A stretch of DNA of 36,702 nt from the IMG/VR virus record IMGVR_UViG_3300037787_000010, positions 1 to 36,702 of that record; one strand, given 5' to 3'. Below, one piece after another: positions 4,399-31,761 of this stretch. This DNA comes from a virus (taxonomy: Duplodnaviria; Caudoviricetes). The position numbers were made by a program, and so were the translations under genes. How positions within the stretch are numbered: position 1 is the stretch's first letter; every line of letters begins with the position of its first letter. Below the pieces are notes generated by a model. It searched no databases. It was not told the origin of the DNA and saw only the letters and a list, made by a program, of their open reading frames with translations.

Positions 4399-5316
4399 AT
4401 GAAAATTAAACGAGTAACTATGACGATAGAACAAGCAAAACAGCACTTCGAGAACATTGGGATTAAAGAGGGCGATGAATTGAGATGCGCTTTTGTAGAT
4501 TCGGATAAAGCAGTTTTTGGTAGTTGGGAATGGTCTGAATTAGAGGTTGTGGATGATGGTTCTGTACTTACAAAGAATTGTGTTGCGAAATACGATGAAG
4601 ATTTTGGGTATTACAGTAATCATTTATGGCTCTACCATGCTAGAACAAATAAATTTGCAACACCTGTAAACCAAGAGAGCGAACTAGATTTCCTTTTAAA
4701 CAATTTCCAAACGCAAGGCACAGAGGACTGGCACGGCGTTAGAGTGGGAAAATTCACCTCATCAGTTATTTACAAGCTACTGACCTCATCACGTAAGAAA
4801 GATGAAGTGTTCGGTGATACGTCAAAGTCCTACATTTACGAAAAGGCAGCGGAACGGCTTAGCGGTGTTTCATGCGATAACTTTGATGGGAATGATGCGA
4901 CTAGATGGGGCGAAGAACACGAGGACGAGGCAGCAAAGGAGTTCGAGCGTGTAACAGGCTTAAAAACTGCCTTAGCGTCGTTTATATCCTCAACACCTTA
5001 TTCAGGTGGTAGTATTGATAGATGGGTAGGCAAGGATAAGAAAGCCATTGCAGAGATTAAATGTCCTTACAACTCAGCTAACTTCATGAAAGTGGTTGAC
5101 GGTTACGTAGACCCTAAGTATTACGCTCAGATGCAACACAACATGTTAGTCACTAAGACGGACAAGTGTTACTACATCAACTATGACCCGCGTATGCCTG
5201 AAGGTAAGCGACTGACTTACAAGATTATCGAAAGGGATGCGGAATTTATTGCTAACTTAGAGGAGCGAATTAAGTTGGCTAATAAGGAAGTTGATAGGAT
5301 ATTGGGGTTGGTGTAA
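4399..5316 (+). CDS. YqaJ/lambda-exonuclease family protein with an extra N-terminal domain of about 95 aa
   Basis: QGTEDW..R.G.FTSS, RWG..HE..A, GSID, EIKCP, YYAQMQ..M, YDPR motifs; start may be 4420 (MTIEQ). Confidence 0.88.
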   Translation: MKIKRVTMTIEQAKQHFENIGIKEGDELRCAFVDSDKAVFGSWEWSELEVVDDGSVLTKNCVAKYDEDFGYYSNHLWLYHARTNKFATPVNQESELDFLLNNFQTQGTEDWHGVRVGKFTSSVIYKLLTSSRKKDEVFGDTSKSYIYEKAAERLSGVSCDNFDGNDATRWGEEHEDEAAKEFERVTGLKTALASFISSTPYSGGSIDRWVGKDKKAIAEIKCPYNSANFMKVVDGYVDPKYYAQMQHNMLVTKTDKCYYINYDPRMPEGKRLTYKIIERDAEFIANLEERIKLANKEVDRILGLV

Positions 5317-5411
5317 CGGCCAAGTATAAAAATTGGCCGCCACTACAAGCGCTGAAATTATGCACTGGCTTTTCAGCGGCTTGTTTTTATACATTGTTGT
5401 AGCTAGTGCCT
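5314..5411. mobile_element. attC-like hairpin, cassette 1
   Basis: TAAC-ggccaa-GTATAAAAA-ttgGCCGC...GCGGC-ttg-TTTTTATAC-att-GTTG, then TAGCTAGTGCCT. Confidence 0.75.
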
Positions 5412-5428
5412 TAAACGAAAATTTAATT

Positions 5429-5728
5429 ATGAAAACTGGAATTGAATTGATTGCCGAAGAAAGGCAGCGACAAATTGAAAAAGAAGGATGGACTGCCGAA
5501 CACGATGCAGAACATAAAGAAGGTGAACTTGCTAATGCAGCAGCTTATTACGCAATGACCGAAGATACCATTGATTTTATAGACAATGAATGGGGTAATG
5601 ATATGCACTTACATATATGGCCTTTTGAACTTAAATGGCTAAAACGAACGCCTGAAAATCGTGTGCGAGAACTTCAAAAAGCTGGTGCATTGATAGCTGC
5701 CGAAATTGATAGACTGAACTCTCTTTAG
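5429..5728 (+). CDS. Cassette 1 cargo: widespread phage alpha-helical protein (99 aa)
   Basis: ERQRQ..EGW..EHD..H..GELA.AA..YA...WP....R.R.L.KA.ALI.AEI.R pattern; ATG 5429 follows an A-rich leader, whereas the track start 5333 is inside the hairpin. Confidence 0.85.
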   Translation: MKTGIELIAEERQRQIEKEGWTAEHDAEHKEGELANAAAYYAMTEDTIDFIDNEWGNDMHLHIWPFELKWLKRTPENRVRELQKAGALIAAEIDRLNSL

Positions 5729-5739
5729 GCATTGGCTAC

Positions 5740-5819
5740 AACTAGGGTATATACGCTATAAATATGCTTATAACAAACACCATCATAAATGTTATACGAG
5801 AGAAACAATACTCTTTATG
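5740..5819. repeat. 80-bp attI-like element, copy 1
   Basis: AACTAGGGTATATACGCTATAAATATGCTTATAACAAACACCATCATAAATGTTATACGAGAGAAACAATACTCTTTATG; 75/80 identical to copy 3 and 62/80 to copy 2 (hand alignment). Confidence 0.9.
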
Positions 5820-6023
5820 AAACCACTAACAATAATATCCCTCTGCGCTTTTTCCGTATATTGCGGTCATGAGTTCACTCATCGTAAAACAGTTAAGCAG
5901 ATTCAGAAGCTCGAAAAAGAATACCAGGAGCGCATTGAAAAGGCTGAAGGTAAACACGCAACATTGCAAGGTCTGCACCGTGAACACATCGACAAGTGCA
6001 GGTTCAATCACTACAATAAATAA
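5817..6023 (+). CDS. Small protein with N-terminal hydrophobic segment and coiled coil (68 aa)
   Basis: ATG is supplied by the 80-bp element. Confidence 0.65.
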   Translation: MKPLTIISLCAFSVYCGHEFTHRKTVKQIQKLEKEYQERIEKAEGKHATLQGLHREHIDKCRFNHYNK

Positions 6024-6026
6024 CCT

Positions 6027-6927: not shown

Positions 6928-7524
6928 ATGAAAAGATACACCACCCTTTTAATGCTTATCCTATCGCTAAACGGATTCAGTCAGATAGGAATACTCGACA
7001 TCTTAGAGTTAAACGCCAATTTCGGACAACCTATTCCCGATGTTCAGCCCGATTTCTTTGGGTATTATCAGGACATCACGGGAGGCTTTGACAGCTTTAC
7101 TAACGAATCAAACGTGCAAGGGGTAGATATTACCCCGGATGATACGCAATACACCTTTATATGGCGGTTAAAAGCGTGTGAGGACTGCGAACCTTATGCT
7201 GAATACTTTGGTTATGAGATACCTTTTAATGAAATGTTTGCTCAAAAAGGCATTTGTGAGGGCGGTTTTTGGGTTACGTTAGTCTGTCAGCACGAAGATG
7301 GGGCGCAATTTGAGAACACTAAACCCGTTTGGGCGTTTTGGGGAGGCGTTGACTACCTTGATTGTGAGTTCGGAGTAGGTCTATTCGACCATTTTAACTA
7401 CCCTTTACGTCCGAAATACTCTGCTTACCAGTACCAAACCTCTTACAGCTATTGGGATTTCAACCAAAATAACGTTAGAGATACAGCGGATTTAATAAAA
7501 CTTTTGGAATTGTACGGTCAATAG
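6928..7524 (+). CDS. Secreted protein with C-terminal dockerin/EF-hand-like motif (198 aa)
   Basis: Signal peptide MKRYTTLLMLILSLNGFS-Q; C-terminus DFNQNNVRDTADLIKLLELYG. Confidence 0.65.
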   Translation: MKRYTTLLMLILSLNGFSQIGILDILELNANFGQPIPDVQPDFFGYYQDITGGFDSFTNESNVQGVDITPDDTQYTFIWRLKACEDCEPYAEYFGYEIPFNEMFAQKGICEGGFWVTLVCQHEDGAQFENTKPVWAFWGGVDYLDCEFGVGLFDHFNYPLRPKYSAYQYQTSYSYWDFNQNNVRDTADLIKLLELYGQ

Positions 7525-7578: not shown

Positions 7579-7890
7579 ATGATTGAAATTGTAAAAGGAG
7601 TAGAGCCGAAAAAAGTTTTATCACTTAGTGAGGCGAATATTCAGAACGAGGATATTATCGGTTACATTAAAGACGGTAATAAGGGGATTTTTCAGACTAA
7701 AGGGTTTATTGGTAATTATTCACCTATTTGCGCTTATAATCATAGCTTTATCTACCAAAACGGATACAATTCTTATGAAAGAAAAAGCCTTTATGAAAGT
7801 GTGGCAGATTTCTTAAACGGAATGGGTGGCGAACTTAAAATATACAAATTCGACAATATCAAAGAATTATTTGCATGGTTAGCTGAATAA
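7579..7890 (+). CDS. Hypothetical protein (103 aa)
   Basis: ORF with A-rich leader downstream of a promoter. Confidence 0.75.
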   Translation: MIEIVKGVEPKKVLSLSEANIQNEDIIGYIKDGNKGIFQTKGFIGNYSPICAYNHSFIYQNGYNSYERKSLYESVADFLNGMGGELKIYKFDNIKELFAWLAE

Positions 7891-7901
7891 CCATATATTT
7901 G
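7870..7901 (+). promoter_or_regulatory. Bacteroidota sigma70-type promoter
   Basis: TTTG-N20-TATATTTG. Confidence 0.75.
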
Positions 7902-7906
7902 ATGTG

Positions 7907-7979
7907 TGGAAACGTTCACGCTTGGTAATAGTTAATTGTTTTGGTTTAATCCCTCGTTAGAAATAGCGGGGGATTTTTT
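7907..7979 (+). ncRNA. Candidate small RNA of about 70 nt
   Basis: Consensus promoter immediately followed by an ORF-less U-rich tract and a terminator. Confidence 0.45.
7948..7979 (+). terminator. Intrinsic terminator
   Basis: AATCCCTCGTTA-GAAA-TAGCGGGGGATT-TTTT. Confidence 0.8.
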
Positions 7980-7990
7980 ATATTAGTCGC

Positions 7991-8242
7991 ATGAAGAATG
8001 TAATAGTAATACACGAAAAAGACCTTAGTGATGGTGAGGAAATTGTTATCGGTGTTTGTAGCTCTATTGAGGGTGCGGATAGGTTGATAAAGGAATATTA
8101 CGGAGATTTTACAGAAATTTCATTTACCGACATTAGAGATAGTGATTTGGAGTACAGCAAGGTTATCCAAGCATATTCATACGATGATACAATTAATAGA
8201 TTTGAAATTCTATTACAATTGTTTACAATAGATAGTTTGTAA
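7991..8242 (+). CDS. Hypothetical acidic protein (83 aa)
   Basis: ORF; TAATG coupling to the next gene. Confidence 0.7.
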   Translation: MKNVIVIHEKDLSDGEEIVIGVCSSIEGADRLIKEYYGDFTEISFTDIRDSDLEYSKVIQAYSYDDTINRFEILLQLFTIDSL

Positions 8243-8454
8243 TGGAGTTAACGATCAAGCCAAAGTTCAGAAGAGGACAGACCGTCTACATAAAGACAGA
8301 CCCTGAGCAGTACCCTAGAATGGTCACGGCTTATGTATTAAGGCAAGGCACGGTAATACAGTACGAGGTCACGCTATGCTCTGACGTAACGTATCACAGT
8401 CATTATGAGCTTTCGACGGAGAAGAGTTTTAACTGGTCAGGTGAGATGAATTAA
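8242..8454 (+). CDS. Hypothetical small beta-rich protein (70 aa)
   Basis: KF..GQTVY.KTDPEQ..R.VT pattern; coupled start. Confidence 0.75.
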   Translation: MELTIKPKFRRGQTVYIKTDPEQYPRMVTAYVLRQGTVIQYEVTLCSDVTYHSHYELSTEKSFNWSGEMN

Positions 8455-8486
8455 TTTGCATATGTCGTTTTTTATTCTCACCTTTG
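8455..8486 (+). promoter_or_regulatory. Probable promoter
   Basis: TTTG-N20-CACCTTTG; spacer shares TATGTCGTTTTTT with 22823-22854. Confidence 0.55.
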
Positions 8487-8508
8487 ATTAAACATTAAAA
8501 CAAACGGT

Positions 8509-8754
8509 ATGAAAAGTATTTATTACATTTCAATTGTCCTTTTACTATACTCATGCAGTGAACCTGGATGGAAGGGTAAAAAGGAAATTAAGCAAGTAAA
8601 AGAAACAAGCGTAACAAAAACAGACTTTCCGCTCAGTAGCGTAAGCATAATGAAAGTTGGTGAGTGTGAGTATGTTTTTTGGGAGAATAGTTACGGTAGT
8701 GATATGGAACACTACGAGGGATGTTCAAATCCTAAACACGATAAATCACATTAA
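8509..8754 (+). CDS. Small lipoprotein (81 aa)
   Basis: MKSIYYISIVLLLYS-C lipobox. Confidence 0.75.
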   Translation: MKSIYYISIVLLLYSCSEPGWKGKKEIKQVKETSVTKTDFPLSSVSIMKVGECEYVFWENSYGSDMEHYEGCSNPKHDKSH

Positions 8755-8756
8755 TA

Positions 8757-8780
8757 AGAGGGGCGAAAGCCCCTTATTTT
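8757..8780. terminator. Terminator between convergent genes
   Basis: AGGGGC-GAAA-GCCCCT-TATTTT. Confidence 0.8.
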
Positions 8781-9348
8781 ATCCCAGCAACTTCACAGCC
8801 TCTTGCATAGCCTTTAACAGCTCTTGCATTTCCAAGTCCGCAGAGATACTCTCAGAGTAAAGTCCTTCAATAGAAAAGCCTTTAACCTCACCTAGCTTTA
8901 CCTTTCCCCACAGTTCATCGCTTTCTACGTAACCGCCTACTATCCACGTACCGATCGGAACGTCTATTCCCAGGTGAACGCTCTTATCATTGTCACTCTC
9001 TTTAATCCAACTCTCTACAAAGTGAACACCCTCAACGTCTGACTCATGCTCTAAGGTCGCATTGTTATTGTGGTTCTTCTCAAAGAATCTGTAAGCCGTC
9101 TTACGGATAACTTCTTCAGAGAAGCGAATATAATACTCTTCACCATCAGGGCGCACACGGTAAATAGGCTTATTCGGAATAAGCGCAGCACCGTAGACCA
9201 TCCTGCGTTCTTCGTTCACGCTTTGCAGTTTCACCTCTTCAGAGTTAAGGTACACCCACTCAGATTCGATTGCAGGTTTCTCGACGAAGGAAATAGCGTG
9301 AACACCTAGCTTTCCTTCTTCGTCAATTTGTAGGTCAATTATTTTCAT
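8779..9348 (-). CDS. Prohead protease, XkdF-like (189 aa)
   Basis: AISFVE.PAIE, G.ALIP.K.IYR, TLEH, ESW, GTW, VK.GEVKGFSIEG. Confidence 0.88.
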   Translation of the reverse strand: MKIIDLQIDEEGKLGVHAISFVEKPAIESEWVYLNSEEVKLQSVNEERRMVYGAALIPNKPIYRVRPDGEEYYIRFSEEVIRKTAYRFFEKNHNNNATLEHESDVEGVHFVESWIKESDNDKSVHLGIDVPIGTWIVGGYVESDELWGKVKLGEVKGFSIEGLYSESISADLEMQELLKAMQEAVKLLG

Positions 9349-9390: not shown

Positions 9391-9573
9391 ATGTCTAATA
9401 CAACTTCATCTAGCACAGGTATCGGAGTGCCAATGGTACTTACTCTTATTTTCACAACTCTAAAGCTAATTGGCTCTATTGATTGGTCATGGTGGTGGAT
9501 ATTATCCCCATTATGGATTTCGGTAATTTTGGCTCTTATTTTTTTGGTAATTATTTTTGTTATTCAAAAGTAA
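9391..9573 (+). CDS. Small two-helix membrane protein (60 aa), moron
   Basis: GIG...L.LIF..LKL.G.IDWSWWW.LSPLW, a widespread phage membrane peptide motif. Confidence 0.8.
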   Translation: MSNTTSSSTGIGVPMVLTLIFTTLKLIGSIDWSWWWILSPLWISVILALIFLVIIFVIQK

Positions 9574-11753: not shown

Positions 11754-14700
11754 ACGCTCTAACTTGTGTTATTTCTAATGTCGCTGATATTTGCAAGTCA
11801 CTTGCCGGAAGTCCTGCCGATGCCACCGCCTCAATTCTCATCCTATGCTGTGCCGTGTTTGTTGTTACGTCGAAGTCTAGTTCCAAGTGTGCCGTTAAGT
11901 TACCGTCCTCGTGATCGGGTGCGATTTGCTGTGTGGTAACTCCTGCCACTCCGTTAGCCTTGTGCATCTCAAAGAAGTACACTTGCTGCCCCCACTTATC
12001 TATCGCCGCCGTTGCCACGTTGTAGTGTGCATAGGAAACGCTTAACTGCGCAGCCCATACCGTTTCGTCAGGAATGGACAGTCTATCGTTTGCGTTCAGG
12101 AATATCTCTATCTGGTCGCCGTTATTAGTGAGCGTCCCTTCACCTTGAAAGGATAACCACCCGAACTGTGAACGCCCTAATATAGTGTCATCGCTGTCAG
12201 ACACTCCACCACCGAACCACAGCCCTCGGTAGTTTACTTGGGTGTTCTCACCAAAGGCTGCGAAAGCCCCTAAGTTATCGTCAGCCTCCATCGTCTTACC
12301 GTGCATGATAGAACCGATGTTACCCTGTCCACTTGTAAGGTTATCACCCCCATACTTCGCACCGAAGTTCCCGGCTTGTATATTGGAATTTGATACATAG
12401 GCGATACTATCACTCGGAAGTGGTGCAGAGTTCCCTGATCCTTGCCCGAAGTTAGTCAGTCCGCTTGTATTAGGTCGGAATCCTCCCTGTGGTATGTTCC
12501 AAAAACACGCAGAGCCTACCCAAGTATATCCGAAGTATTCACAACACTCTTGCGTCCCTGCTCCTGTTGCCCCTCCTTCATCTTCAAAGGTAATCGTGCC
12601 ACTTGCATTACTTTGGAACGGTGTCCACTCGCATCCCGTTTGTAGGGTAAGTATCTTAATCAGCTTCAGCTTCGTAGGCTCATTTGCTCCTACGTTGTAG
12701 CCTTGCACTTCAAGCACACGCCAATAACTATCCTTTATCCAAATGACATCGGAGAAGTCGAAGTTAAGGAAGTCGGAAATGGACAGCATAAAGTGTGCCT
12801 CCATTATCCGTGCGCTAGGGTCGTATATCTCTCTAATGTATTCCTGCCAATAACGGTAGAATAGATTGAGGTAAGGCGCACCAACGGTCTGCTGAAGATA
12901 TACCTCCTGCCCGAAGTTTAGGTCAAGCGTAGCCTCACCTGGTTCTCCATTCTCAATGTCGTAATTATCGAAGTGCGACAATACCCTGCACGTTGTATCA
13001 GTAACCGTCGCTGTATCGTCGTCGTACACTTGCACGTTGTCTACATCAAAAGCGTGGTAAAGTATGCGTGGCTTTACCTTAAATGTTTCCCCCTTGTCAT
13101 TGATAAACTTCGGGATAGGTACATTCGTGCCAATGATGTTATTACACGGGGTGGGTGCGAACTTCAGTTCCACTGAGTTAGTGCCACTTGCAAAGTCGCT
13201 TCTGAGGTTCGTAAGTATCGGGCTATCCTCCGTATCAAGTTGCCCGAAGATTCTATCGCCCTCGTCTGTGTATATCTTATTGAGTGCATCGCCATCCTCA
13301 CGGTAGGTATAAAGCAAATCCCTCGACTGTATAGAATTGGTAGACTTAGTAAGCACGTCATGATTCAAGTCTAACTTCCCCGTCCAATCCAAAGTTTCCC
13401 CACTCTGCAAGTATTGATTCATGGATTCAATACGCACCTTGTTAGGCACGTTCTTATCGGGAACGATGATAAGGTTGTGCATCCTTGCAATCGAGGTAAT
13501 AAAATCGTATTGCCTCATCTCAGGAGCATTAAGAGCCATGTCAACGGTATAGTCTGCAACTTGCGCCACCACCTCAAACATCTCCATTCCCGTACCTTCA
13601 GATGGCGAATAACCCGCAGTGCCTTCAACGTCTATATCCCATCCGCCATTAGAGATGTAATAAACAGATAGCTTAACAGTATCACCGCTGTTTATGAACA
13701 GGTCTACATACTCAACGAAGTTAACGCCAAATTCTGAAACCACAGCGTTTGGTGATGAGTTTAGTATTTCGTCATCCCCATCATCACGAAGCATTAACTG
13801 AACCTGCGGGGAACTACCACCCATACCTGAGCGATTAAACGTTCCCCAATACCTAAACCTAAATATCCCTGTAAATGGTGCTGTGAATACGTTTGCAGAA
13901 ACGTTCCCACCGTTGTCATAACTCTCGGTTAGCTCGGTGGAGAAATCAAAGAACCCTGTACCTGCGCTTATCGTAAACTCATCTGCGGTAAGCAAGTTCA
14001 ATCTGAAGTTCTGACCGTTTGGCGGTTCTGTGCTTATAGGGGCTATTGTACCGTTATACCAAGGAATCCAATATGAATCTAATGTATCGGGAAAGTCAGA
14101 AGGTGAATCAATAGTAAACCCTGCATCGCTCCAAATGTTATCCCAAATCCAACGAGCTTTAACGGCAGGTGTAAGGTCAGACGGATAGAGTGGATTAGAT
14201 GCAGCAGCAGGAGCGAATACAGGTCTTGTGCCTACCTCACCACCTTGTGAGAAGTTCTGTCCTTTGTCAATAAGGAAATACTTTACATTCCCACTCTGCA
14301 AGTTGTCGTTAGTAACCGCATCATAGTCTAAGTCATGTTCTAAGTCTGTGGATAGCTGAGTAAGTTCCGATAACTTTAAGTCACCTATTTCAGCTTTAAT
14401 GTCAGGAGTTTCCCCAAAGTACCGAAGCGTTGCCTCGTAACCTACTTTAGTCTTTATGATGTCTGTGATTTCAACATGACCTTGTGAATAAGGGATAGTA
14501 TCAACCGTAACGTAAGCGGGTATCTTCTCCTTTGGATTGTACCACCCTACGTAGTTAACGTCGTATATCGCTCCTATGAAATCCTGGAACTCTTCATTTA
14601 TAGGAGAGCGGAAAGTGTCAGAATAAGCCCCTGTCGGTCTAAAGTTCTGTAAGTCCGTGAACGACAAGTTAAGCGAAACATTATATCCGTCGAATGTAGG

Positions 14701-21441: not shown

Positions 21442-21446
21442 TGTTC

Positions 21447-22140: not shown

Positions 22141-22144
22141 AAAA

Positions 22145-22642: not shown

Positions 22643-22649
22643 TATTTAG

Positions 22650-22817
22650 TTATTTACTAGATATTGATGTAATGTTTTTTCTTGTTTCATACTTTCTTAT
22701 TATCGCTAAATCTCTTTGATTTTGCTCATTAAAAAAAGACTGAATAGAACTTGGTATAAAAATTTCACCTCTTGCAGCTATCCTTAATTTAGCTCCTAAA
22801 TATTCATCTATATACAT
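22650..22817 (-). CDS. Small hypothetical ORF (55 aa, MYIDEYLG...)
   Basis: Manual translation; fills the gap upstream of the sigma-like gene. Confidence 0.4.
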   Translation of the reverse strand: MYIDEYLGAKLRIAARGEIFIPSSIQSFFNEQNQRDLAIIRKYETRKNITSISSK

Positions 22818-22822
22818 CTTAT

Positions 22823-22854
22823 TTTGTGTATGTCGTTTTTTTTATGCTTCTTTG
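22823..22854 (+). promoter_or_regulatory. Probable promoter of the replication operon (divergent region)
   Basis: TTTG...CTTCTTTG, resembling 8455-8486. Confidence 0.45.
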
Positions 22855-22878
22855 CTCTCGCAATATAAATAAAATCTT

Positions 22879-22989
22879 ATGGCACAGATACAGAAAACCA
22901 TTGAACCTGACAAGCGATTAAGTTTTAACGCATGGCACAGGTACTTGAGAAGGGAGTTGAACAAGAAATACAAAATAAAGAACAGATGA
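22879..22989 (+). CDS. Small protein, 36 aa (MAQIQKTIEPDKRLSFNAWHRYLRRELNKKYKIKNR)
   Basis: A-rich leader; ATGA coupling to 22986; below the ORF-track cutoff. Confidence 0.6.
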   Translation: MAQIQKTIEPDKRLSFNAWHRYLRRELNKKYKIKNR

Positions 22990-23507
22990 ACAACATGGAC
23001 ATACGCAAGGAAATCAAGGACTGTATTTGCACAACCCTTGTGATTGGTAATAAGGAGAGTATTGAATTGGCTTTAGATAAGATAATAAAGTGTCTCTACA
23101 AACATGAGAACTCGCTTGACTTGAGTAATCCAATAGACAAGATGGAGTTTTGTCTTGAGAAGGCTATCAAGGCTTCAAAAGAAGTGAACGTTGGCTATAA
23201 GCCTAATGCTTTAGGAGTAAATATATTTAACCCGGACTTTGGTATTGAGGACATGAAGGGAGATGTACGTTACTTGCCTTATGCAGATGCTCGGCACATT
23301 TTCTTTTATTACGCAAAAAGAGTTCTGAATGTTAAGACAATGGCTTCTATTGGTGGTTATCTGAACAGAGACCACAGTACAGCATTGCACGGGATTAGAA
23401 AAGTAAAAGGACGTATTAATGTTGATAAGGATTATAGGGAGGTTATAGACAGGATTGAAAAGGAGATAGTTTTTTATCTGCAAAATTACGGAAACGCAAT
23501 CGACTAA
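22986..23507 (+). CDS. Protein with DnaA domain IV (C-terminal HTH), 173 aa
   Basis: AR.I..Y.......SIG..L.RDHST.LH..RK; no AAA+ domain; start re-called from the ATGA overlap. Confidence 0.85.
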   Translation: MNNMDIRKEIKDCICTTLVIGNKESIELALDKIIKCLYKHENSLDLSNPIDKMEFCLEKAIKASKEVNVGYKPNALGVNIFNPDFGIEDMKGDVRYLPYADARHIFFYYAKRVLNVKTMASIGGYLNRDHSTALHGIRKVKGRINVDKDYREVIDRIEKEIVFYLQNYGNAID

Positions 23508-23525
23508 GCAGAACGTAACGCATTA

Positions 23526-23572
23526 TGTACCCACAAGTGTACCCACAAGTGTACCCACAAGTGTACCCACAA
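23526..23572. repeat. Four tandem 12-bp repeats TGTACCCACAAG (iteron/DnaA-box-like)
   Basis: 3 perfect copies plus an 11/12 copy; intergenic. Confidence 0.95.
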
Positions 23573-23588
23573 ATTTTTGGAAGGCTAA

Positions 23589-24251
23589 ATGAAGTTTAGA
23601 GAAAAAAAAAGCACGGAAGAAGCTCTTACAGAATTGCAGGAAATGACTGGTATTACTAACCGTTCAGAGCTTGTGGAGCGTTCTATCCTGATGGCTGTTA
23701 TTCTTGGAAAGCTAGATGAAGAAAATTTCAAAAAAAATCTACTGTATAGTAGTTTGTATAGGAATAATACTCTTGTAGAGGTATTAACTAGCATAGGTAT
23801 ATACCCTACTAAGGACTATACTAAGTATAGCTCTACTAAGTATAGTAGTAAAAAACATGAAGAATTTTCTGTAATTCCAAATAAAACAGAAGAAAGTTAT
23901 CAACAAATTACATTAAGCGATAAGGTAAAGACCGCAATGCCTTTCGGTGAACAGTTCGCTGAGGCTTGGCTAGGGTGGAGAAGACACGTGAAGCACAGGA
24001 CTAGAACGCACTTAACACCTGACCAGGAACTTGCACAATTCAAAAGGATTACCGATAATTGCAAGACCGAAGAAGAAGCGGTAAACATCATTAACACATC
24101 AATAGCACAGAACTATGCAGGACTCATTATCCCCACAAGACAAGCTAATCATTCAGGAAAAGGAAAAGGCTTTACAGGTATTGACCCAGAAGATTTCCGA
24201 GCTGAAGCAGAAAGACTACGGAATGATCTCAAGCAGAGACGCTCATCTTAA
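23589..24251 (+). CDS. Putative replication initiator (220 aa)
   Basis: C-terminal F.EAW..W......Q...I...EA..II..SI..NY.GL domain; low-complexity linker with internal DNA repeats. Confidence 0.65.
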   Translation: MKFREKKSTEEALTELQEMTGITNRSELVERSILMAVILGKLDEENFKKNLLYSSLYRNNTLVEVLTSIGIYPTKDYTKYSSTKYSSKKHEEFSVIPNKTEESYQQITLSDKVKTAMPFGEQFAEAWLGWRRHVKHRTRTHLTPDQELAQFKRITDNCKTEEEAVNIINTSIAQNYAGLIIPTRQANHSGKGKGFTGIDPEDFRAEAERLRNDLKQRRSS

Positions 24252-24741
24252 CGGCAGTCAGGTAACGATAATCTATGAAGACGACTCCAATACCCTTCTC
24301 ACGCAATTACAGGGGGCAATTTTAGACGTTTACATGGAATTGGATAAACAACCCTTGAAAGCATCTCGGACGGCTTCTGAGGTACTTAAAATGCTTCTAC
24401 GGGATTATTACTACATGAAGTACGAAGAGTTCATGTTAGTTTTCCGAATGATGAAGGAGGGTAAGTTCGGTTCGTTCTATGGTAAGTTAGGGCTTGCAGA
24501 GTTTCAACGTAGCTTCAAAGAATACGACACATCGGAGGAACGCAGTTTGATGTGGGAAAATTTGCACAAGTCAAAAAAGATAGATACATTGCCGGAGATT
24601 ACCGCAGAGATGTACGACGAGGCGATAGAGCGCATGAAGCAAGAGGCGAATGAAAAGGTAAGTTCAGAAGATGCTAATGCGCTTTACAAGAAATTGAAAG
24701 CAGAGTATTCAAATGTAAAATCGGATAAAAACCCGATATAG
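24223..24741 (+). CDS. Putative helicase loader/replication accessory protein
   Basis: Follows the initiator; Y...K.EE...F.....G.FG..Y pattern; start uncertain (24115 or 24223). Confidence 0.5.
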   Translation: MISSRDAHLNGSQVTIIYEDDSNTLLTQLQGAILDVYMELDKQPLKASRTASEVLKMLLRDYYYMKYEEFMLVFRMMKEGKFGSFYGKLGLAEFQRSFKEYDTSEERSLMWENLHKSKKIDTLPEITAEMYDEAIERMKQEANEKVSSEDANALYKKLKAEYSNVKSDKNPI

Positions 24742-24778
24742 ACGATTATCGGATAAAAAGCCTATAAAACAAGATATT

Positions 24779-25057
24779 ATGTCAAACAAGAATCATAAAA
24801 TAACAATTCCGTACTCGGATTATGAAAAGTATTTAGAGGTGATGGAATTTTATGAAGCATTAAAAAATGGAGATAAATCTATTGAGGCTCGCACTGTTAA
24901 CGCTTGGTTCGATTATGGTGATACCGTATATAGTTTTATTGACACTGAGGTCATCAATAAAGAATTGCTCAAATCCTTGGAATACCTTAAAAAAGAAAAT
25001 AAAAGACTTATAAGAACCATAGAAAAGCCAAAACAAAAAAAATGGTGGAAAACATGA
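24779..25057 (+). CDS. Hypothetical protein (92 aa)
   Basis: ORF with A-rich leader. Confidence 0.7.
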   Translation: MSNKNHKITIPYSDYEKYLEVMEFYEALKNGDKSIEARTVNAWFDYGDTVYSFIDTEVINKELLKSLEYLKKENKRLIRTIEKPKQKKWWKT

Positions 25058-25134
25058 AACACTTAACAGAATGCAACGAAGTCCTCGTTCTATGGGAGGA
25101 CGGGGAGTATAGACCTGAAAACATACTAGCATGA
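25054..25134 (+). CDS. Micro-ORF, 26 aa (MKHLTECNEVLVLWEDGEYRPENILA)
   Basis: ATGA overlaps at both ends. Confidence 0.45.
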   Translation: MKHLTECNEVLVLWEDGEYRPENILA

Positions 25135-25952
25135 TTAAAGTAATAACCTGCCACCACCACAGGCACAAGATAGCAGAACTGTTCTACTTAGGTATAGATC
25201 GACTTAAAACAGGGATGTATAACGTTCAAGTGTACGCAGCGATAACGAAAGGCGATGAGGGTAGTATAGCACTTGCTGAGAAGTACGGAGCGAAGTATGT
25301 GCTTACTGAGAATAATCCGTTAGGGAAGAAGTGGAATAGTGCTTATCAGTTGGCTTGTAGTTCCGGTAATAAGTCGGACGACATAATCATTTTAGGGGAG
25401 GATAATGTTTTGAGCGTGCAGTATATCGACTACGTTTATAATTTTGGAGAGTCTTTAACTGTATTCGGTCTTAAAACCTGCGGGATAGTAGACCTACAAT
25501 CAAAGACCGTTAAGCGATGGACGTACAAGGATGACTTGCAACTTATCGGGGCAGCTCGTATATTTTGGCAGCCAAAGCCTTTTGTAGTAGGTAAGCCAGT
25601 GCGACCTATCCGAATAGGTAACTACGCTTTAGATGTGAACAGGGATATTCCTTTGCATCCCGGTACGCTTAACAACAACGGGAGGAATATAGTCAAGGCT
25701 AAAGAGATATACGCCCTTTGGGATGATAAACTTAACTCAGGACTTGACAGGTCGAGCGAGGCGAACCTTGCGCTGTTAGGTTACGACTCAGTGCAGTTCG
25801 ATGACGGCAGGATTCACGTATTGGACTTTAAGAGCAATGCGAACATACATAAGTTCTCAGAGTTCAAAGGCTGTGAGGAAACGGATGAGGATTGGAAGTG
25901 GTTTCTGAGCGATGAGGAAAAGGAGTATTTGAAAGTTAATTTTGGATTGTAA
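25131..25952 (+). CDS. Glycosyltransferase-like protein, GT-A fold (273 aa)
   Basis: N.PLG.KWN, ILGED, IGAAR, GLD motifs. Confidence 0.6.
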   Translation: MIKVITCHHHRHKIAELFYLGIDRLKTGMYNVQVYAAITKGDEGSIALAEKYGAKYVLTENNPLGKKWNSAYQLACSSGNKSDDIIILGEDNVLSVQYIDYVYNFGESLTVFGLKTCGIVDLQSKTVKRWTYKDDLQLIGAARIFWQPKPFVVGKPVRPIRIGNYALDVNRDIPLHPGTLNNNGRNIVKAKEIYALWDDKLNSGLDRSSEANLALLGYDSVQFDDGRIHVLDFKSNANIHKFSEFKGCEETDEDWKWFLSDEEKEYLKVNFGL

Positions 25953-26019
25953 CGGTTTGGCTATGATTAAGCGAAGCGACCCGATAGGGTTAATTATAGC
26001 CTTTGTTACCTGCTGTGGC
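25950..26019. mobile_element. attC-like hairpin, cassette 2
   Basis: TAAC-ggtttg-GCTATGATTAA-[GCGAAGC, CCCgataGGG]-TTAATTATAGC-cttt-GTTA, then CCTGCTGTGGC. Confidence 0.8.
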
Positions 26020-26059
26020 GGGATTTTGAAAACGAATTTTAATTTAAAACAGAATAATT

Positions 26060-26368
26060 ATGGACTTAGAATGCCCTTATTGCGAAACAGAACTTGAAGT
26101 TTGTCATGATGATGGATTTGGCTATGAAGAAGGGGTTAAGCATCAAATGGAATGTAGCAATTGTGAAAAATCATTTGTGTTTGAAACTTCAATTTCATTC
26201 TACTATGAGCCTGAGAAAGCTGATTGCTTAAATGACGGAAAGCACAAATGGAAACCGCAAACTTCCTACCCGAAAGAGTTTACAAAGATGGAGTGCCAAA
26301 GCTGTGGCGATACGAGAAACCCAACGGAGGATGAAATGAAAGAAATACTATCTGAAACGGTATCGTAG
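26060..26368 (+). CDS. Cassette 2 cargo: multi-CxxC zinc-ribbon protein (102 aa)
   Basis: CPYC, CSNC, C.....H, CQSC. Confidence 0.85.
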   Translation: MDLECPYCETELEVCHDDGFGYEEGVKHQMECSNCEKSFVFETSISFYYEPEKADCLNDGKHKWKPQTSYPKEFTKMECQSCGDTRNPTEDEMKEILSETVS

Positions 26369-26379
26369 CCATTGCAGGT

Positions 26380-26459
26380 AACTAGGATATAAACGCTATA
26401 AATATGTCGATAACAACAACCATCATGTTTCTTATACGCAGAAATCAATACACCTTATG
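26380..26459. repeat. 80-bp attI-like element, copy 2
   Basis: AACTAGGATATAAACGCTATAAATATGTCGATAACAACAACCATCATGTTTCTTATACGCAGAAATCAATACACCTTATG; aligns without gaps to copies 1 and 3. Confidence 0.85.
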
Positions 26460-27050
26460 AACCTATCAATAATAATCCCTTTCAACAAGGATAGAGGATG
26501 GCTAAGCAAAGCCATTGAGTCGGTAGAAAAGCAGACCGAACCTTGTGAGCTTATTCTATCGAAGTCAGACAATACTTGCGCTGTGAACCTTGCGAGAGGT
26601 TTAGATCAAGTCAAGACAGAGTATTACGCTGTACTTGCAGAGGATGACTATTTACACCCTCACTTTGCCGAAAGGATGCTGAAGGGTATTGGCGACGCTG
26701 CAATGTCTTTCTCCGATGCTTGGAGGATAGACCCGAAAGGGAATACTAAGCTGTGGCGGTCAGCTTATCACGGTCACAATGACTTGTTAGGAGGAACTTT
26801 AATTCATGGTGGTGCTGTGATGTACCACACGGAAACGGTCAGAAGGCTCGGAGGTTACGATGAAACGCTAACCACAGCAGAAGAATACGACTTACACTTG
26901 CGTATGTCGTTTAATGGTTGTAAATTCGCTTACGTAGGTTATCCGCTTTACTATTACAGGCTTCACGGGGATAACAAAAGTAAGATTACAAGAGCAAACA
27001 GATCCGAGCGTAAGACTTACATTAACCAAATTAGAGATAGATACAGATGA
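26457..27050 (+). CDS. GT2-family glycosyltransferase (197 aa)
   Basis: SIIIP.N, AI.SV..Q, L.EDD, GGYDE.L..AEEYDL.LR, YYYR.H. Confidence 0.9.
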   Translation: MNLSIIIPFNKDRGWLSKAIESVEKQTEPCELILSKSDNTCAVNLARGLDQVKTEYYAVLAEDDYLHPHFAERMLKGIGDAAMSFSDAWRIDPKGNTKLWRSAYHGHNDLLGGTLIHGGAVMYHTETVRRLGGYDETLTTAEEYDLHLRMSFNGCKFAYVGYPLYYYRLHGDNKSKITRANRSERKTYINQIRDRYR

Positions 27051-27706
27051 AAATACTTAATCTATATGCATGTTTAGGAGGCAACCGTTATAAGTGGGAC
27101 GAGGTGACAGATGTGGATGTTACAGCGGTAGAGCTTGACCCTGAACTAGCAAGACTTTATCAAGAGAGGTTTCCTAATGACGCGGTTATCGTTGCAGACG
27201 CTCACCAATATTTGCTTGACCATTACAAAGAGTTTGATTTTATTTGGAGTTCACCGCCTTGTCCTACGCATAGCAGGGCTAGGTTCTGGGGAATTGGAGC
27301 AAACGGAAAAGACCCCGTCTATCCAGATATGAAACTTTACCAGGAGATTATATTTTTAGAACATCACTTTAAAGGTAAATACGTAGTTGAAAACGTAATA
27401 CCATATTATACCCCGATGCTTCACTGTCAAAAAAGAGACAGGCATTTATACTGGACTAACTTTAAACTACCTAATGAGTTATCTAAAAGAGAAGGTAATT
27501 CAGGATTAGTTAGCAACAGAAAGGATGAGGTGAGTTTATTAAGTGATTTCCACGACTACGACTTTAGAAAGTATAAAGGCAGTCAAAGGACTGATAAAAT
27601 TGCCCGTAACCTGGTAGACTACGAAGCAGGTAGAACAATACTTGAAGCTGCTTTAGGAGTGATAAGAAAAGAGAATGAGAATCAACTAGAAATGTTTGAA
27701 GAATGA
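27047..27706 (+). CDS. DNA cytosine-5 methyltransferase-like protein (219 aa)
   Basis: LYACLGG (motif I), SPPC (IV), ENV (VI), RH. Confidence 0.85.
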   Translation: MKILNLYACLGGNRYKWDEVTDVDVTAVELDPELARLYQERFPNDAVIVADAHQYLLDHYKEFDFIWSSPPCPTHSRARFWGIGANGKDPVYPDMKLYQEIIFLEHHFKGKYVVENVIPYYTPMLHCQKRDRHLYWTNFKLPNELSKREGNSGLVSNRKDEVSLLSDFHDYDFRKYKGSQRTDKIARNLVDYEAGRTILEAALGVIRKENENQLEMFEE

Positions 27707-28452
27707 GAGTAGCGAGTATAGCAACATACGTAGATAGATTAGGCGTTTTACCGGATGCGGTTAGGTCACTTGCCCCGCAGGTGGATGTGGTTCAGATTTA
27801 TTATAATGGTGAGCCCGATGATGCCGGATACTTTATTGCGCTCAATTCTTTAATTAAGGTCGCAGCAAAGTATGACACAGAAATGTACTTAACTCCAGTT
27901 AAAGACCTCGCAGACCTTTCAAAGTTTCGTGCCATTTGGGACTATCCCGATGCAACGATATTCACCTGCGATGACGATTTAATCTATGACCCTGAATATA
28001 TCTACAAGCTCTCTAAGAACCTTTACCATGACCCACTGATAACAGCGGACGTTGTATCGTTAGGTGGTAAGGTAGTAAAGGAGGGAAAGCCGTTTGAAAG
28101 GGCGAAGAAGTGGAAAGACCTATTCCTAAGCCGTGTAACGTGCTTTAGCAAGAACAACCTATGGATGCAGACTACCACGCTGGACATTCCTTTAAGCGGT
28201 GTTTCTGTATTCAAGGCAAAGGATTTTCAGGATTGCAAGATAGACGAGAAGTATAAATACGCTGCGGACATTCAACTCGGTAAGTGGTGCAAGGACAAAG
28301 GTCTTATCGTGAAGAACGCATGGAATAGACCACGGTCACTTGTGAAGTACAATCCGAAGATGAACGGTAAGGAAACAATATTCGATAAGCACACGTCAAA
28401 AGACAACCGAATAGTGAGTTTAGTCAAAGAAATTTGGAAAAGTGATTTATAA
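27703..28452 (+). CDS. Glycosyltransferase-like protein, GT-A fold (249 aa)
   Basis: SIAT...R...L...V.SL..QVD and TCDDDLIY. Confidence 0.75.
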   Translation: MRVASIATYVDRLGVLPDAVRSLAPQVDVVQIYYNGEPDDAGYFIALNSLIKVAAKYDTEMYLTPVKDLADLSKFRAIWDYPDATIFTCDDDLIYDPEYIYKLSKNLYHDPLITADVVSLGGKVVKEGKPFERAKKWKDLFLSRVTCFSKNNLWMQTTTLDIPLSGVSVFKAKDFQDCKIDEKYKYAADIQLGKWCKDKGLIVKNAWNRPRSLVKYNPKMNGKETIFDKHTSKDNRIVSLVKEIWKSDL

Positions 28453-28486
28453 TACTTTCCTTTGTGTAAACAATAAACAAAAAGTT

Positions 28487-28867
28487 ATGTACGATTTTCA
28501 CTACAAAACAACACAATTCACAGGTAAGGTCACTCAAGTAGACTACGACTCTGAGCCTGAACACGAAACCTACGAACTACCGCACGACATTTGCGTGGAG
28601 GTGGTTAAGCATAACGGTAGCTTTCTCCCTGTGGTATGGGACAGGCAGTCTAACGTGGACGAAAAGTTTATGAATGACATGAGTGAAAAGCTCGAAGAGT
28701 GGCTTATTAAAGACCTTATACCGTGGGGCGGTGACTTGCACTACGTAGAGCTTGATAACGGTATTTGCGTTTACGACGACGCACACAATAGAGGTCGCCA
28801 TATTGGATGGGCTGTTATTCAGGCTTGGATTATTGACGAACTAAACGATTACACCCATGAAGATTGA
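28487..28867 (+). CDS. Hypothetical protein (126 aa; start re-called to MYDFHY)
   Basis: A-rich leader; promoter-like TTTG...TTCCTTTG at 28433-28464. Confidence 0.7.
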   Translation: MYDFHYKTTQFTGKVTQVDYDSEPEHETYELPHDICVEVVKHNGSFLPVVWDRQSNVDEKFMNDMSEKLEEWLIKDLIPWGGDLHYVELDNGICVYDDAHNRGRHIGWAVIQAWIIDELNDYTHED

Positions 28868-29126
28868 CACAACATTAAAGGTTAATAGAGTTACTGATTT
28901 TCCTTGCCTTGCTAAATTTGAAGAGGATGGGGATATAAAGGTTAATATATTCTTTGACTACTCTACCTCTATATGTGTGAAAAACACTTTTAATGATGGT
29001 ACTGTTTTAGGGGAACTTAAGAAGTACGGAGACGAGGGAGGATGGTACTCTTTAGATACATTTGAGAGGATAGAAGGTTCTACCGAAATCCACTTTAAAC
29101 TTAGAGAACCATTATTAAGTGAGTAA
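28857..29126 (+). CDS. Hypothetical protein (89 aa)
   Basis: Overlapping start. Confidence 0.7.
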   Translation: MKIDTTLKVNRVTDFPCLAKFEEDGDIKVNIFFDYSTSICVKNTFNDGTVLGELKKYGDEGGWYSLDTFERIEGSTEIHFKLREPLLSE

Positions 29127-29161
29127 ACCAACCTTTACAAAACAAGCGAAAAAACGATAAA

Positions 29162-29743
29162 ATGTCAGAGATAATTTACACACCAGCAATGGCGAAAGCC
29201 CTTGCGACTTTTCAAGGAAAAGAAATTGAAATTGACCTAGATGCCGACGTTAAGATAAAGTTGAAGACAGGCGGTGAAGTGAAGTTTAAGTATGCTACCT
29301 TAGGCAACATAGTGAAGAAGATACGCCCCGTGTTAAAGGAGGCGGGGCTATCTTTCTCTCAGCTTATAGATGCTGAACACGGCAGACTACTCACACGCAT
29401 TATCTGCGTGGAAGATGGTAGTTACTTTGAGAGCGCAATGCCTATGACCTTAACGGGCGATCCGAAGAACGTCGGTGGGAATATAACCTACTTCAAACGT
29501 TACAGCCTATGCGCTGCACTAGGTATTGTCGCAGAGGATGATAAAGACCATGAAGGAACGGAGTCCACTACGAAGCCTGTATGTACTCAGAAGTTCCTTG
29601 ACGACATTCTAACCCGTACAAGAAATGGTGAGGAAGGTCTACTTGAGAAGTATATCGCTACCTTTGTAGTGGACGTACATCAAATCAGAGAAATACATAA
29701 CGCAGAAATAGAAGCACAGAATGGAACTAACGGGAACGATTAA
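29162..29743 (+). CDS. ERF-family ssDNA annealing protein (193 aa)
   Basis: KYATL..I.....P.L...GL...Q and G..ITY.KRYSL.A.LGI..EDD.D. Confidence 0.9.
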   Translation: MSEIIYTPAMAKALATFQGKEIEIDLDADVKIKLKTGGEVKFKYATLGNIVKKIRPVLKEAGLSFSQLIDAEHGRLLTRIICVEDGSYFESAMPMTLTGDPKNVGGNITYFKRYSLCAALGIVAEDDKDHEGTESTTKPVCTQKFLDDILTRTRNGEEGLLEKYIATFVVDVHQIREIHNAEIEAQNGTNGND

Positions 29744-30065
29744 ATTAGTAAAGGATATACAGACTTTTGACAGCGGATTCCAAAAGCGTGAGTTCGTACT
29801 CACTACCACAGGCGAATATCCGCAAGACATTAAGTTTGAACTCCTGAAGGATAACGTGGATAAGCTGAATAAGAGCCACGAAAACCTACCCTTTGAAGTA
29901 CACTTCGATATACGAGGGAGGGAGTACAACGGAAACTACTACAACAACCTGGTATGTTGGAAGGTGAAAGCACTGTATGAGAACAACGCAGACGGAAGCC
30001 ACACGCCACACGGAAAGGTAAATGACGCTTTCGACGGAACAGGAGATGAAGACCCACCGTTTTGA
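29721..30065 (+). CDS. DUF3127-family OB-fold SSB-like protein (114 aa)
   Basis: FQKREFV....YPQ.I.FE, F.IRGRE, YN.L..W, acidic tail ending DPPF. Confidence 0.85.
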   Translation: MELTGTIKLVKDIQTFDSGFQKREFVLTTTGEYPQDIKFELLKDNVDKLNKSHENLPFEVHFDIRGREYNGNYYNNLVCWKVKALYENNADGSHTPHGKVNDAFDGTGDEDPPF

Positions 30066-31378
30066 TAATCGACAGCAACGAAATATTCTTTGAAAAGCAG
30101 AGGGCGGCATTAGCTGCCCTTGCTAATGATACACCCCACACAGAAGTCCTTTATGGGGGCGGTGTAGGCGGTGGTAAGTCCGTAGTCGGTGTAGGATGGC
30201 AGATAATGCGTAGGCTTAAATACAAAGGTAGTAGAGGGCTTATAGGACGTAGTAAGCTATCGGCACTAAAGAACACTACTTTAAGGTCATTCTTTGAAAC
30301 AGCAAAGCGAGATTTCAAGATGGAAGCCGGGAAGCATTACAGTGTGAATAACCAGAGTAACATCATTACGTTTTTCAATGGCTCTGAGATATTCCTTAAA
30401 GACCTATTTCTGTACCCATCCGACCCTGACTTTGACAGCTTAGGTTCGCTTGAGATAACAGATGCTTTTATAGACGAGGTTACACAGATAACCCCGAAAG
30501 CATGGAGCGTTGTGAAGTCACGTATGAGGTACATGGTAAGCGATGAAATCAAGGGCGTGATACTTGGCACTTGTAACCCGGCAAAAGGATGGGTGTATAA
30601 CAACTTCTATAAGCCATATACAGACGGCACACTACCTGAGTACCGTTGCTTTATACAAAGCCTTATAACGGATAATCCTCATCTCCCTAAGTCTTACATC
30701 GAAAGTCTAAAGACACTACCTGAACAGCAACGTAAAAGGCTTTTAGAGGGTAATTGGGACTATGACGATAGCATTGATAGGCTGTTCAATTACGATGACC
30801 TTACCTCAATGTTCAGGAATGACAACACGGGCGATAAGAAGTACATCACAGCGGACATCGCAAGGTTCGGAAAGGACAGCACGGTTATAGGTGTATGGAA
30901 AGGCTTTACCCTCATCGAGATTGAGGAAATGAAAACAAGCTCGGTAGATGAATCGGTAAGGTCGATTAAAACGCTTATGCAGAAGCACAGCGTGAACCTT
31001 TCTAATGTGGTAGTTGATGGTGATGGTATTGGTGGGGGCGTGGTAGACTACCTGAAGTGCCGTGAGTTTGTCGGTGGTTCATCGCCACTCAACAACAAAA
31101 ATTGCAAAAACCTGAGAGCAGAAGGGTATTTCAAACTCGCAGAATTTGTAGAGTCAAGAAAAATTGCTATACTTGTTGATAGCAAGAAGGAAGATATAAT
31201 TCGGGAGCTTGATAGCACAAGAAGAAAGAACCCTGAGTTGGACGGTAAGCTGCAAGTAATAGGTAAAGACCAAATCAAAGCGATGAACGCCGGGCAATCT
31301 CCAGACTACGCTGACATGATAATGATGAGAATGTATTTTGAATTACGCCCGAACTACGGGGTGTATGCTATTGGGTAA
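30062..31378 (+). CDS. terL: Terminase large subunit (438 aa)
   Basis: Walker A YGGGVGGGKS, Walker B AFIDE, TCNP, nuclease motifs ADIARFG.D and SPD.AD. Confidence 0.93.
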   Translation: MIIDSNEIFFEKQRAALAALANDTPHTEVLYGGGVGGGKSVVGVGWQIMRRLKYKGSRGLIGRSKLSALKNTTLRSFFETAKRDFKMEAGKHYSVNNQSNIITFFNGSEIFLKDLFLYPSDPDFDSLGSLEITDAFIDEVTQITPKAWSVVKSRMRYMVSDEIKGVILGTCNPAKGWVYNNFYKPYTDGTLPEYRCFIQSLITDNPHLPKSYIESLKTLPEQQRKRLLEGNWDYDDSIDRLFNYDDLTSMFRNDNTGDKKYITADIARFGKDSTVIGVWKGFTLIEIEEMKTSSVDESVRSIKTLMQKHSVNLSNVVVDGDGIGGGVVDYLKCREFVGGSSPLNNKNCKNLRAEGYFKLAEFVESRKIAILVDSKKEDIIRELDSTRRKNPELDGKLQVIGKDQIKAMNAGQSPDYADMIMMRMYFELRPNYGVYAIG

Positions 31379-31447
31379 CGGTTTGGCTATGAAGCGTTGT
31401 GTAGTGCAACGGAACAATGATTTATAGGTGTTGTTATGCACCGTTAA
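31376..31447. mobile_element. attC-like hairpin, cassette 3
   Basis: TAAC-ggtttgg-CTATGAAGCGTTGT...ACAATGATTTATAG-gtgtt-GTTA, then TGCACCGTTAA; first 17 nt identical to cassette 2. Confidence 0.8.
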
Positions 31448-31463
31448 TTTTAAAATAATAAAG

Positions 31464-31673
31464 ATGAAAAGTTTAATAGAAGTATTTAGAATGACAGAAG
31501 TTAGCAACAAGGTAAGAGCTAACATAATAGTAAAACTTGGTAGAGCAATAAACCACGAGTACGGTATGAATATAACCGAACCTCTTGTTGCGGAATTAGT
31601 TTACCAACTTGACGCTGAACACGAAATATTTAAAAATGAAATGTATTTGAAGCACGTGAACGGCACTGCTTAA
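31464..31673 (+). CDS. Cassette 3 cargo: hypothetical protein (69 aa, MKSLIEVF...)
   Basis: ATG after an A-rich leader; track start 31428 is inside the hairpin. Confidence 0.7.
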   Translation: MKSLIEVFRMTEVSNKVRANIIVKLGRAINHEYGMNITEPLVAELVYQLDAEHEIFKNEMYLKHVNGTA

Positions 31674-31681
31674 TGGTGCAT

Positions 31682-31761
31682 AACTAGTGGATAAACGCTA
31701 TAAATATGCTTATAACAAACACCATCATGAATGTTATACGAGAGAAACAACACTCTTTATG
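31682..31761. repeat. 80-bp attI-like element, copy 3
   Basis: AACTAGTGGATAAACGCTATAAATATGCTTATAACAAACACCATCATGAATGTTATACGAGAGAAACAACACTCTTTATG. Confidence 0.9.

Follow-up and report, generated by a model that had tools for sequence, protein, structure and literature searches.

Integrons are taught as a single platform with its own integrase, IntI, and, beside the recombinase gene, an attI site made up of a degenerate left box, a 5-nt spacer and the G|TT at which cassettes cross over. The 36,702-nt stretch of DNA analysed here (IMG/VR record IMGVR_UViG_3300037787_000010, positions 1 to 36,702; hereafter the window) holds the genome of a tailed phage, about 36.4 kb long and complete: its ends overlap by 257 nt (3 mismatches), and completeness is estimated at 100%. 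The one sequencing run in which it was found is that of a pond metagenome, possibly its source. The genome contains three dispersed loci in which an attC-like hairpin and one small gene precede a copy of an 80-nt repeat. Each locus is probably, at a likelihood of roughly 70%, a one-cassette unit seated at a copy of an attI-type landing site and inserted by a Xer-like recombinase acting in trans, from the host or from another phage.

Classical integrons, including those of inverted-integrase layout, share with these loci the G|TT crossover, the folding AAC/GTT hairpin and the single gene per unit, as well as a non-palindromic site beside the host recombinase gene (PMC11641012, PMC13323075). They differ in that the candidate recombinase described below lacks the IntI insertion, that the cargo here faces the attI-like site, and that the phage has three separate docks with no enzyme in its genome. 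The host is likely to be a member of Bacteroidota, as suggested by the hairpin family, matches to Flavobacterium phages and a Dysgonomonas homolog of cargo 3; almost no complete integrons have been reported in that phylum (PMC9024848). In virulent phages, including Polaribacter phage P12002L, clusters of attC sites without an integrase (CALINs) were described by Qi et al. 2023 (PMC9892861). Of six sites assayed there with IntI1/attI1, all recombined except the attC1 of P12002L (PMC9892861); by eye, the oligonucleotide sequence of this attC1 resembles the hairpins of the window. CALINs, however, require at least two clustered attC sites within 3 kb, whereas each locus of the window has a single hairpin, at 5.4 to 20.6 kb from the others, and the available sections of that report describe neither repeated attI-like docks in virulent phages nor a systematic inversion of cargo.

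Single attC sites with a gene, remote from any integrase (SALINs, inserted at attG sites; Loot et al., 10.1101/2022.09.11.507474) are also similar, but have by definition no att site nearby, whereas each cassette of the window abuts a repeated, putatively attI-like site. The PeSL cassettes of T4-type phages likewise combine dispersed gene-border repeats with the exchange of small genes; they are promoter-terminator units exchanged by recombination between copies (PMC2839356), whereas in the window the breakpoints are 3-nt AACs and each gene has complementary arms of its own. A further similar system is Polaribacter phage Freya (Bartlau et al., PMC8776804), with hairpin-gene units, AAC junctions and variation among isolates, which differs in encoding a recombinase beside the site. 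The Freya integrase is taken there as a sign of a temperate lifestyle, the words "integron" and "cassette" occurring 0 times in the main text (PMC8776804). The original prediction, made from the sequence, knew of no description of such an arrangement. This holds insofar as no account was found in the literature of inverted phage cassettes, multi-copy attI-like docks or a Xer-like enzyme as cassette recombinase, although supplements and closed journals may hold prior art; it is too broad for phage attC sites and integrase-less clusters, which are published (PMC9892861).

Anatomy of the three loci

The layout is common to all three loci: an AAC overlapping the TAA stop codon of the upstream gene (at 5315, 25951 and 31377), a hairpin, a GTT (5396, 26005 and 31433) with its arm, one small gene, the reverse arm with its AAC (5740, 26380 and 31682), and the 80-nt repeat, which runs to the ATG of the next gene (Table 1). 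Direct re-measurement reproduced this layout and the predicted AAC-to-AAC lengths of 425, 429 and 305 nt for loci 1, 2 and 3, with 14/16, 13/16 and 14/16 identities between the arm and the reverse complement of its partner. An arm test requiring at least 13/16 identities, an exact 7-nt core and a distance of 200-450 nt was passed by 6 of the 1365 GTT sites, namely the three loci, each read on both strands. The genome holds only three copies of the 80-nt element, which match one another at 62, 75 and 61 of 80 positions. Arm pairs with 12/16 identities (12496-12619 and 18956-19263) were considered as a fourth cassette and rejected, as they fall within open reading frames (ORFs) and no 80-nt element comes after them.

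Table 1. Features of the three loci and the Erf-like gene (window positions)
Feature	Position	Strand	Basis
Locus 1 upstream gene, YqaJ/RecE-like exonuclease; TAA gives left AAC	4399..5316	+	
attC-like hairpin 1; top-strand polarity on minus	5315..5398	-	detector and fold
Arm of cassette 1, from its GTT; pairs with 5727-5742 at 14/16	5396..5411	+	
Cargo 1, 99 aa; PHROG families without known function; copy with 94% DNA identity in the array of another phage	5429..5728	+	
attI-like site and leader, copy 1; crossover AAC 5740-5742; ends in ATG of 5817	5740..5819	-	
Locus 2 upstream gene, 273 aa, no family match; TAA gives left AAC	25131..25952	+	
attC-like hairpin 2; nearly the same hairpin, joined to different arms, in phage loci L113, L127	25951..26007	-	
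Arm of cassette 2, from its GTT; pairs with 26367-26382 at 13/16	26005..26020	+	
Cargo 2, 102 aa, Cys-rich; weak zinc-finger matches under cut-off	26060..26368	+	
attI-like site and leader, copy 2; ends in ATG of family-2 glycosyltransferase (26457)	26380..26459	-	
Erf-like annealing protein	29162..29743	+	PHROGs
Terminase large subunit; TAA gives left AAC of locus 3	30062..31378	+	
attC-like hairpin 3; identical, AAC through arm start, to L115 hairpin heading other sequence	31377..31435	-	
Arm of cassette 3, from its GTT; pairs with 31669-31684 at 14/16	31433..31448	+	
Cargo 3, 69 aa; 81 homologs, none functionally named	31464..31673	+	
attI-like site and leader, copy 3; ends in ATG of 31759	31682..31761	-	

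The hairpins have the attributes of attC, i.e. an imperfect AAC...GTT palindrome with complementary R boxes (13-14/16) and a fold z of -5.0 to -7.1 on the predicted bottom strand. At the reconstituted circle junctions of loci 1-3 the plus strand gave fold z values of -5.0, -7.1 and -5.4, and the minus strand -4.9, -5.1 and -3.3, so that the plus-strand fold was equal or better in 3/3; at locus 2 a G-T wobble takes the place of a clear bulge, and at locus 1 several folds compete, the best of which is not one clean stem. The 7-mers are GTTGTAG, GTTACCT and GTTATGC on the repeat side and GTTACAC, GTTACAA and GTTACCC on the gene side. GTT plus a purine is thus present in 6/6 and the complete GTTRRRY in 0/6, roughly as the original caveat had put it. 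The G+C content at third codon positions of the cargo genes is 0.25-0.37, versus 0.42-0.49 in six flanking genes; a search of the three cargo genes for defence systems (PADLOC) matched 0/3, and Rfam gave 0 matches in the window.

The absence of a tyrosine recombinase from the closed genome, another element of the original description, was confirmed: neither the tyrosine recombinase profile PF00589 nor the serine recombinase profile PF00239 matched (0 of 1 each), and PHROGs annotation called no integrase among the 60 ORFs. There is thus no intI gene in the element.

Hairpin polarity, probable landing site and cassette traffic

The 17-nt start common to hairpins 2 and 3 was matched in 49 IMG/VR stretches, many of which are rows of hairpin, GTT arm, gene, reverse arm and AAC. 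In Bacteroidota chromosomes the hairpin stands after a forward gene and reads AAC-3 nt-stem...stem-5 to 7 nt-GTT, which is also how the hairpins of the window read on its minus strand (hairpins 1 and 2 by detector, hairpin 3 by eye). At 37 distinct phage sites the next ORF pointed toward the array end, and was thus inverted, in 31 cases and in the opposite direction in 1 (5 unscored); at 16 bacterial sites the cargo was canonical in 12, inverted in 0 and unscored in 4. Because the polarity of the hairpin relative to the landing site is alike in phages and bacteria and only the gene is turned, the inversion appears to be built into the phage cassettes. All three cargo genes of the window face the attI-like site, instead of reading away from attI and from the integron promoter Pc. 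Both hairpin detectors were imperfect and missed locus 3; one of them, the cassette detector, gave 67 matches on real versus 14 on reversed sequence.

The predicted minus-strand order of attI-like site, G|TT, inverted cargo, attC-like hairpin and G|TT is therefore supported by the array polarity of Bacteroidota, and it also fits the integrase-adjacent site, the array ends of integrase phages and the AAC-to-AAC indels of Freya, all presented below. Hairpins of 180-250 nt with an ORF in the loop, or cargo ORFs starting within the hairpin, were seen in L115, L117 and L129, at 7019-7323 of G315 and at 3791-4100 of L385.

Several observations point to the repeat as a landing site. A pattern made of its first 21 nt had 16 matches in GTDB genomes, 9 of them in Bacteroidota, and at 7 a forward ORF begins 16-79 nt after the GTT; 4/7 passed the strict arm test, versus 1 weak pass among the 9 other matches. 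Flavobacterium polysaccharolyticum has three near-identical dispersed copies of the core site and, 110 nt past its gene for an IntI-like recombinase, a related site. Soon after the integrase stop, 24/30 fetched loci have a TATA-like box, 5 nt and GTT, an independent arm rule agreeing in 17/24, and a matrix from such integrase-adjacent sites ranks the three sites of the window 2, 6 and 7 of 1364 GTT. In phages that carry the integrase, the array ends in the arm with its AAC, followed by 36-87 nt to the integrase ATG, in 19/25 distinct loci (28 of 30 examined, minus 3 duplicates); this geometry recurs in the window, where AAC and ATG are 74 nt apart and other genes follow the ATG. The putative attI core fits in geometry and matrix rank, but no enzyme is adjacent to it in the window, and the matrix misses the Freya site. 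It is highly probable that the core of the repeat is the landing site. The proposed check for the 80-bp element next to intI in Bacteroidota succeeded for the core, which resembles the integrase-adjacent site and also the one directly ahead of the integrase gene in other phages, and not for the full 80 nt. The first codons after the repeats (5817, 26457 and 31759) are somewhat alike: among 1275 pairs of gene starts theirs rank 8, 14 and 81, which hints at copying through short homology.

Dispersed docks occur in other genomes too. Among 14 virus records read whole, the array-end motif has four copies in G315, three in G326 and two in G317; each of these genomes is complete and has no recombinase match. 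Two G326 copies have no upstream arm and are possibly empty, a tentative reading because a detector missed the hairpin of a loaded G326 copy. In two Flavobacterium genomes a dispersed site lies beside the same gene, presumably prfA, and has different first cassettes. Flavobacterium chromosomes (L367-L384; G001, G016, G346, G366, G386) contain 2-4 copies of the landing-site region, beside or away from the recombinase gene.

Exchange itself is seen in Freya, of which GenBank holds ten isolates (MT732463-MT732472; L385-L393) with the recombinase and with lengths of 43,978 to 48,920. Stretches of six isolates were compared in the region before the integrase. A single 307-nt unit of hairpin plus gene, beside the integrase leader, distinguishes Freya_10 from Freya_9, with AAC as the sole overlap, and Freya_1, 5 and 6 break at the same AAC. 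Freya_6 has a different insert (472 nt by record lengths) where Freya_5 has none, and in Freya_1 a distant AAC is joined to the same site. Cargo 1 of the window matches a cassette of a 69-kb phage (L287) with 93.8% identity along 369 nt, the identity stopping at the right AAC; hairpins 2 and 3 are common to other phages at 96-100% identity, starting at the left AAC. The predicted breakpoints at AAC are thus found among the Freya isolates, and it is very probable that the three units are cassettes with crossovers at AAC. For insertion by an enzyme at attI x attC, the Freya AAC-to-AAC indels are an indirect indication. The idea of hairpin and cargo as one unit agrees with the same indels; it is too strict in that hairpin and cargo are not always inherited together.

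Candidate recombinase and competing explanations

A possible enzyme is an IntI-like (Xer-like) recombinase found in 112/301 Bacteroidota genomes. The host candidate aligned to 2A3V in two blocks (78-249/9-180 and 271-345/244-318), between which it has 21 residues versus 63 in IntI; it aligns unbroken to archaeal XerA and scores 205 bits against TIGR02249 (integron integrase), for which the cut-off is 265. The phage version has 268 aa, is 42% identical to the host enzyme and aligned with it without a long gap. Neither version contains the IntI-specific additional domain, which is regarded as the defining feature of IntI (10.1101/2022.02.06.479319). Because the candidate enzyme lacks this insertion, the system is not a member of the integrons, while the statement that it works like one stands. 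Among 31 virus records searched (27 chosen by hairpin and 4 by terminase), PF00589 matched in 1/31, and in 1/14 of the near-complete ones. The proposal that a host IntI-like enzyme is borrowed is therefore retained in part: supply in trans is favoured, but the candidate is Xer-like and another phage is also a possible source. In Algoriphagus pacificus (L179, 5720-9016) the IntI-like gene is split; behind it lie a second recombinase and a transposase-like gene, presumably of the IS91 type, about 6 kb from the landing site.

Insertion would most likely proceed as in integrons: a circular cassette would fold its hairpin on the plus strand and join the double-stranded repeat at G|TT, the Xer-like recombinase being supplied by the host or a helper phage. 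An empty slot would read gene-TAAC, repeat, next ATG. The inverted cargo would lie along the phage operon and be read from it, with no need for Pc, and the slots could still gain or lose cassettes. The least supported step is the arrival of the repeat copies, for which the likeliest course is a crossover at a stop-codon TAAC at one end combined with recombination through short homology close to the ATG at the other end; the exonuclease and Erf are a candidate route for copying the repeat.

A number of observations weigh against insertion in trans at attI-type docks. No empty or reloaded version of any slot of the window was found. The sole syntenic relative, L011 (72% terminase), has after the terminase a few bases and an unrelated gene, with neither cassette nor repeat, and is not an empty slot because the repeat is missing along with the cassette. 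Contigs of the source run (18000-36702) gave only repeat-collapse joints and no variant at loci 2 and 3, although contigs drop rare variants. The full 80 nt has no relative elsewhere in IMG/VR, metagenome, GTDB and GenBank phage searches or by nhmmer of the fetched loci: exact mid-repeat patterns matched 2 viral and 8 metagenome stretches and the core pattern 2 viral ones, all chance-looking, blastn against GenBank phages gave short matches only (E 0.9 or worse), and an nhmmer search of the fetched loci with the three copies brought up no relative of full length. The matrix scores of the three sites (8.9, 5.7 and 5.1) lie under most leave-one-out scores, the top-ranking site lies inside a gene, and the score of the Freya site is -8.9; the three repeat copies are not independent, and the matrix sites were chosen by a motif rule. 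Freya has its own integrase and is thus no demonstration of action in trans. Cassette 1 has the arms of L287 but a different hairpin body, contrary to what would be expected of a strict AAC-to-AAC unit, L136 and L280 carry one gene under different arms, and cassette arms frame only 2/69 distinct cargo-1 homologs. From this last count it would follow that ordinary phage genes get wrapped into cassettes.

Of the terminase relatives, 75/80 loci could be examined (5 were cut by contig ends), and none of their 44 distinct gene ends is followed by a hairpin or the repeat. The slots of loci 1 and 2 are not comparable in this way, because no relatives of the locus 2 upstream gene were found and the locus 1 exonuclease has only two (33-35% identity). 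Swapping at the three slots themselves, as originally proposed, is a conjecture drawn from AAC-to-AAC exchange in related phages, which neither the sole syntenic relative nor any empty or reloaded slot supports, and the balance tips only slightly towards slots that are still active.

One alternative is that the units are true cassettes but fossil blocks, each comprising a hairpin, a gene and an attI-like end, captured once from the end of another phage's array by the exonuclease and Erf and no longer swapped. The phage encodes a YqaJ-like exonuclease, Erf and SSB, L011 lacks the entire block, loci 2 and 3 are invariant in the source contigs, the weak similarity continues beyond the ATG, and active docks in direct repeat would be expected to risk lethal deletions. 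Left junctions lying exactly at the stop-codon AAC three times are hard to reconcile with such capture, as are the 94% identity of cargo 1 to its copy in another phage's array and the 96-100% identity of hairpins 2 and 3 elsewhere, which indicates recent site-specific traffic; on this evidence fossil blocks are unlikely. Another possibility is that the repeat is a regulatory, PeSL-like linker and that single cassettes landed, SALIN-like, at the preceding TAAC as a secondary (attG) site. IntI is reported to insert cassettes at GWT secondary sites (10.1101/2022.09.11.507474), PeSL repeats drive module shuffling in T4-type phages (PMC2839356), and the repeat does end in a translation start. All three cassettes, however, lie at the first base of the repeat and not at other GTT sites, the repeat core matches integrase-adjacent sites, and neither strand of the repeat has a promoter box (consensus taken as TAnnTTTG), which makes a linker distinctly improbable.

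On a plus-strand reading the loci would be ordinary cassettes that lost the downstream attC, the left hairpin being a remnant of a vanished earlier cassette. That cargo 1 has the GTT-to-AAC part, and not the hairpin body, in common with L287 would suit this, but the hairpin asymmetry is reversed on the plus strand, the Freya unit consists of the left hairpin plus gene, and the variable end and the integrase are at the right of phage arrays; this possibility is very slight. Cassette insertion in trans at copies of an attI-type site is thus preferred.

A broader picture, to which we would give even odds, is that inverted cassettes form a lineage of their own in Bacteroidota phages, that some of these phages have lost the enzyme, copied the dock into several operons and are served in trans by a Xer-like recombinase that acts on folded single-stranded hairpins despite lacking the IntI insertion, and that hairpins and genes are often re-paired. 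Re-pairing would then be frequent enough for new cassettes to be observed as they form. An integron-related system is in any case common in Bacteroidota chromosomes and phages; its candidate recombinase lacks the domain regarded as necessary for hairpin recognition, and in phages the genes are turned round and the landing site is multiplied. Hairpins common to different genes, and genes common to different hairpins, bear on the question, open in the field, of how cassettes arise. The cultured Freya isolates, which already differ by single cassettes, and their cultured host offer a ready test system for the enzyme, strand choice and action in trans.

Other features of the phage genome

PHROGs annotation identified the portal, terminase, tape measure and endolysin, as well as the recombination genes for the YqaJ/RecE-like exonuclease, Erf and SSB. 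A 12-nt unit is repeated four times in tandem at 23526-23572, between a gene with a DnaA-C helix-turn-helix and a likely replication gene, and is the probable replication origin. The regions 25131-28452 and 33292-33951 contain the family-2 glycosyltransferase, two neighbours without assignment and two DNA methyltransferases, and are possibly involved in DNA modification. Small plus-strand genes lie within the minus-strand structural region (7579-8782, 9391-9573 and 16711-16965) and carry shared terminator-like (D5, D6) and promoter-like (D4) repeats; these genes are moron-like and distinct from the hairpin-cassette type.

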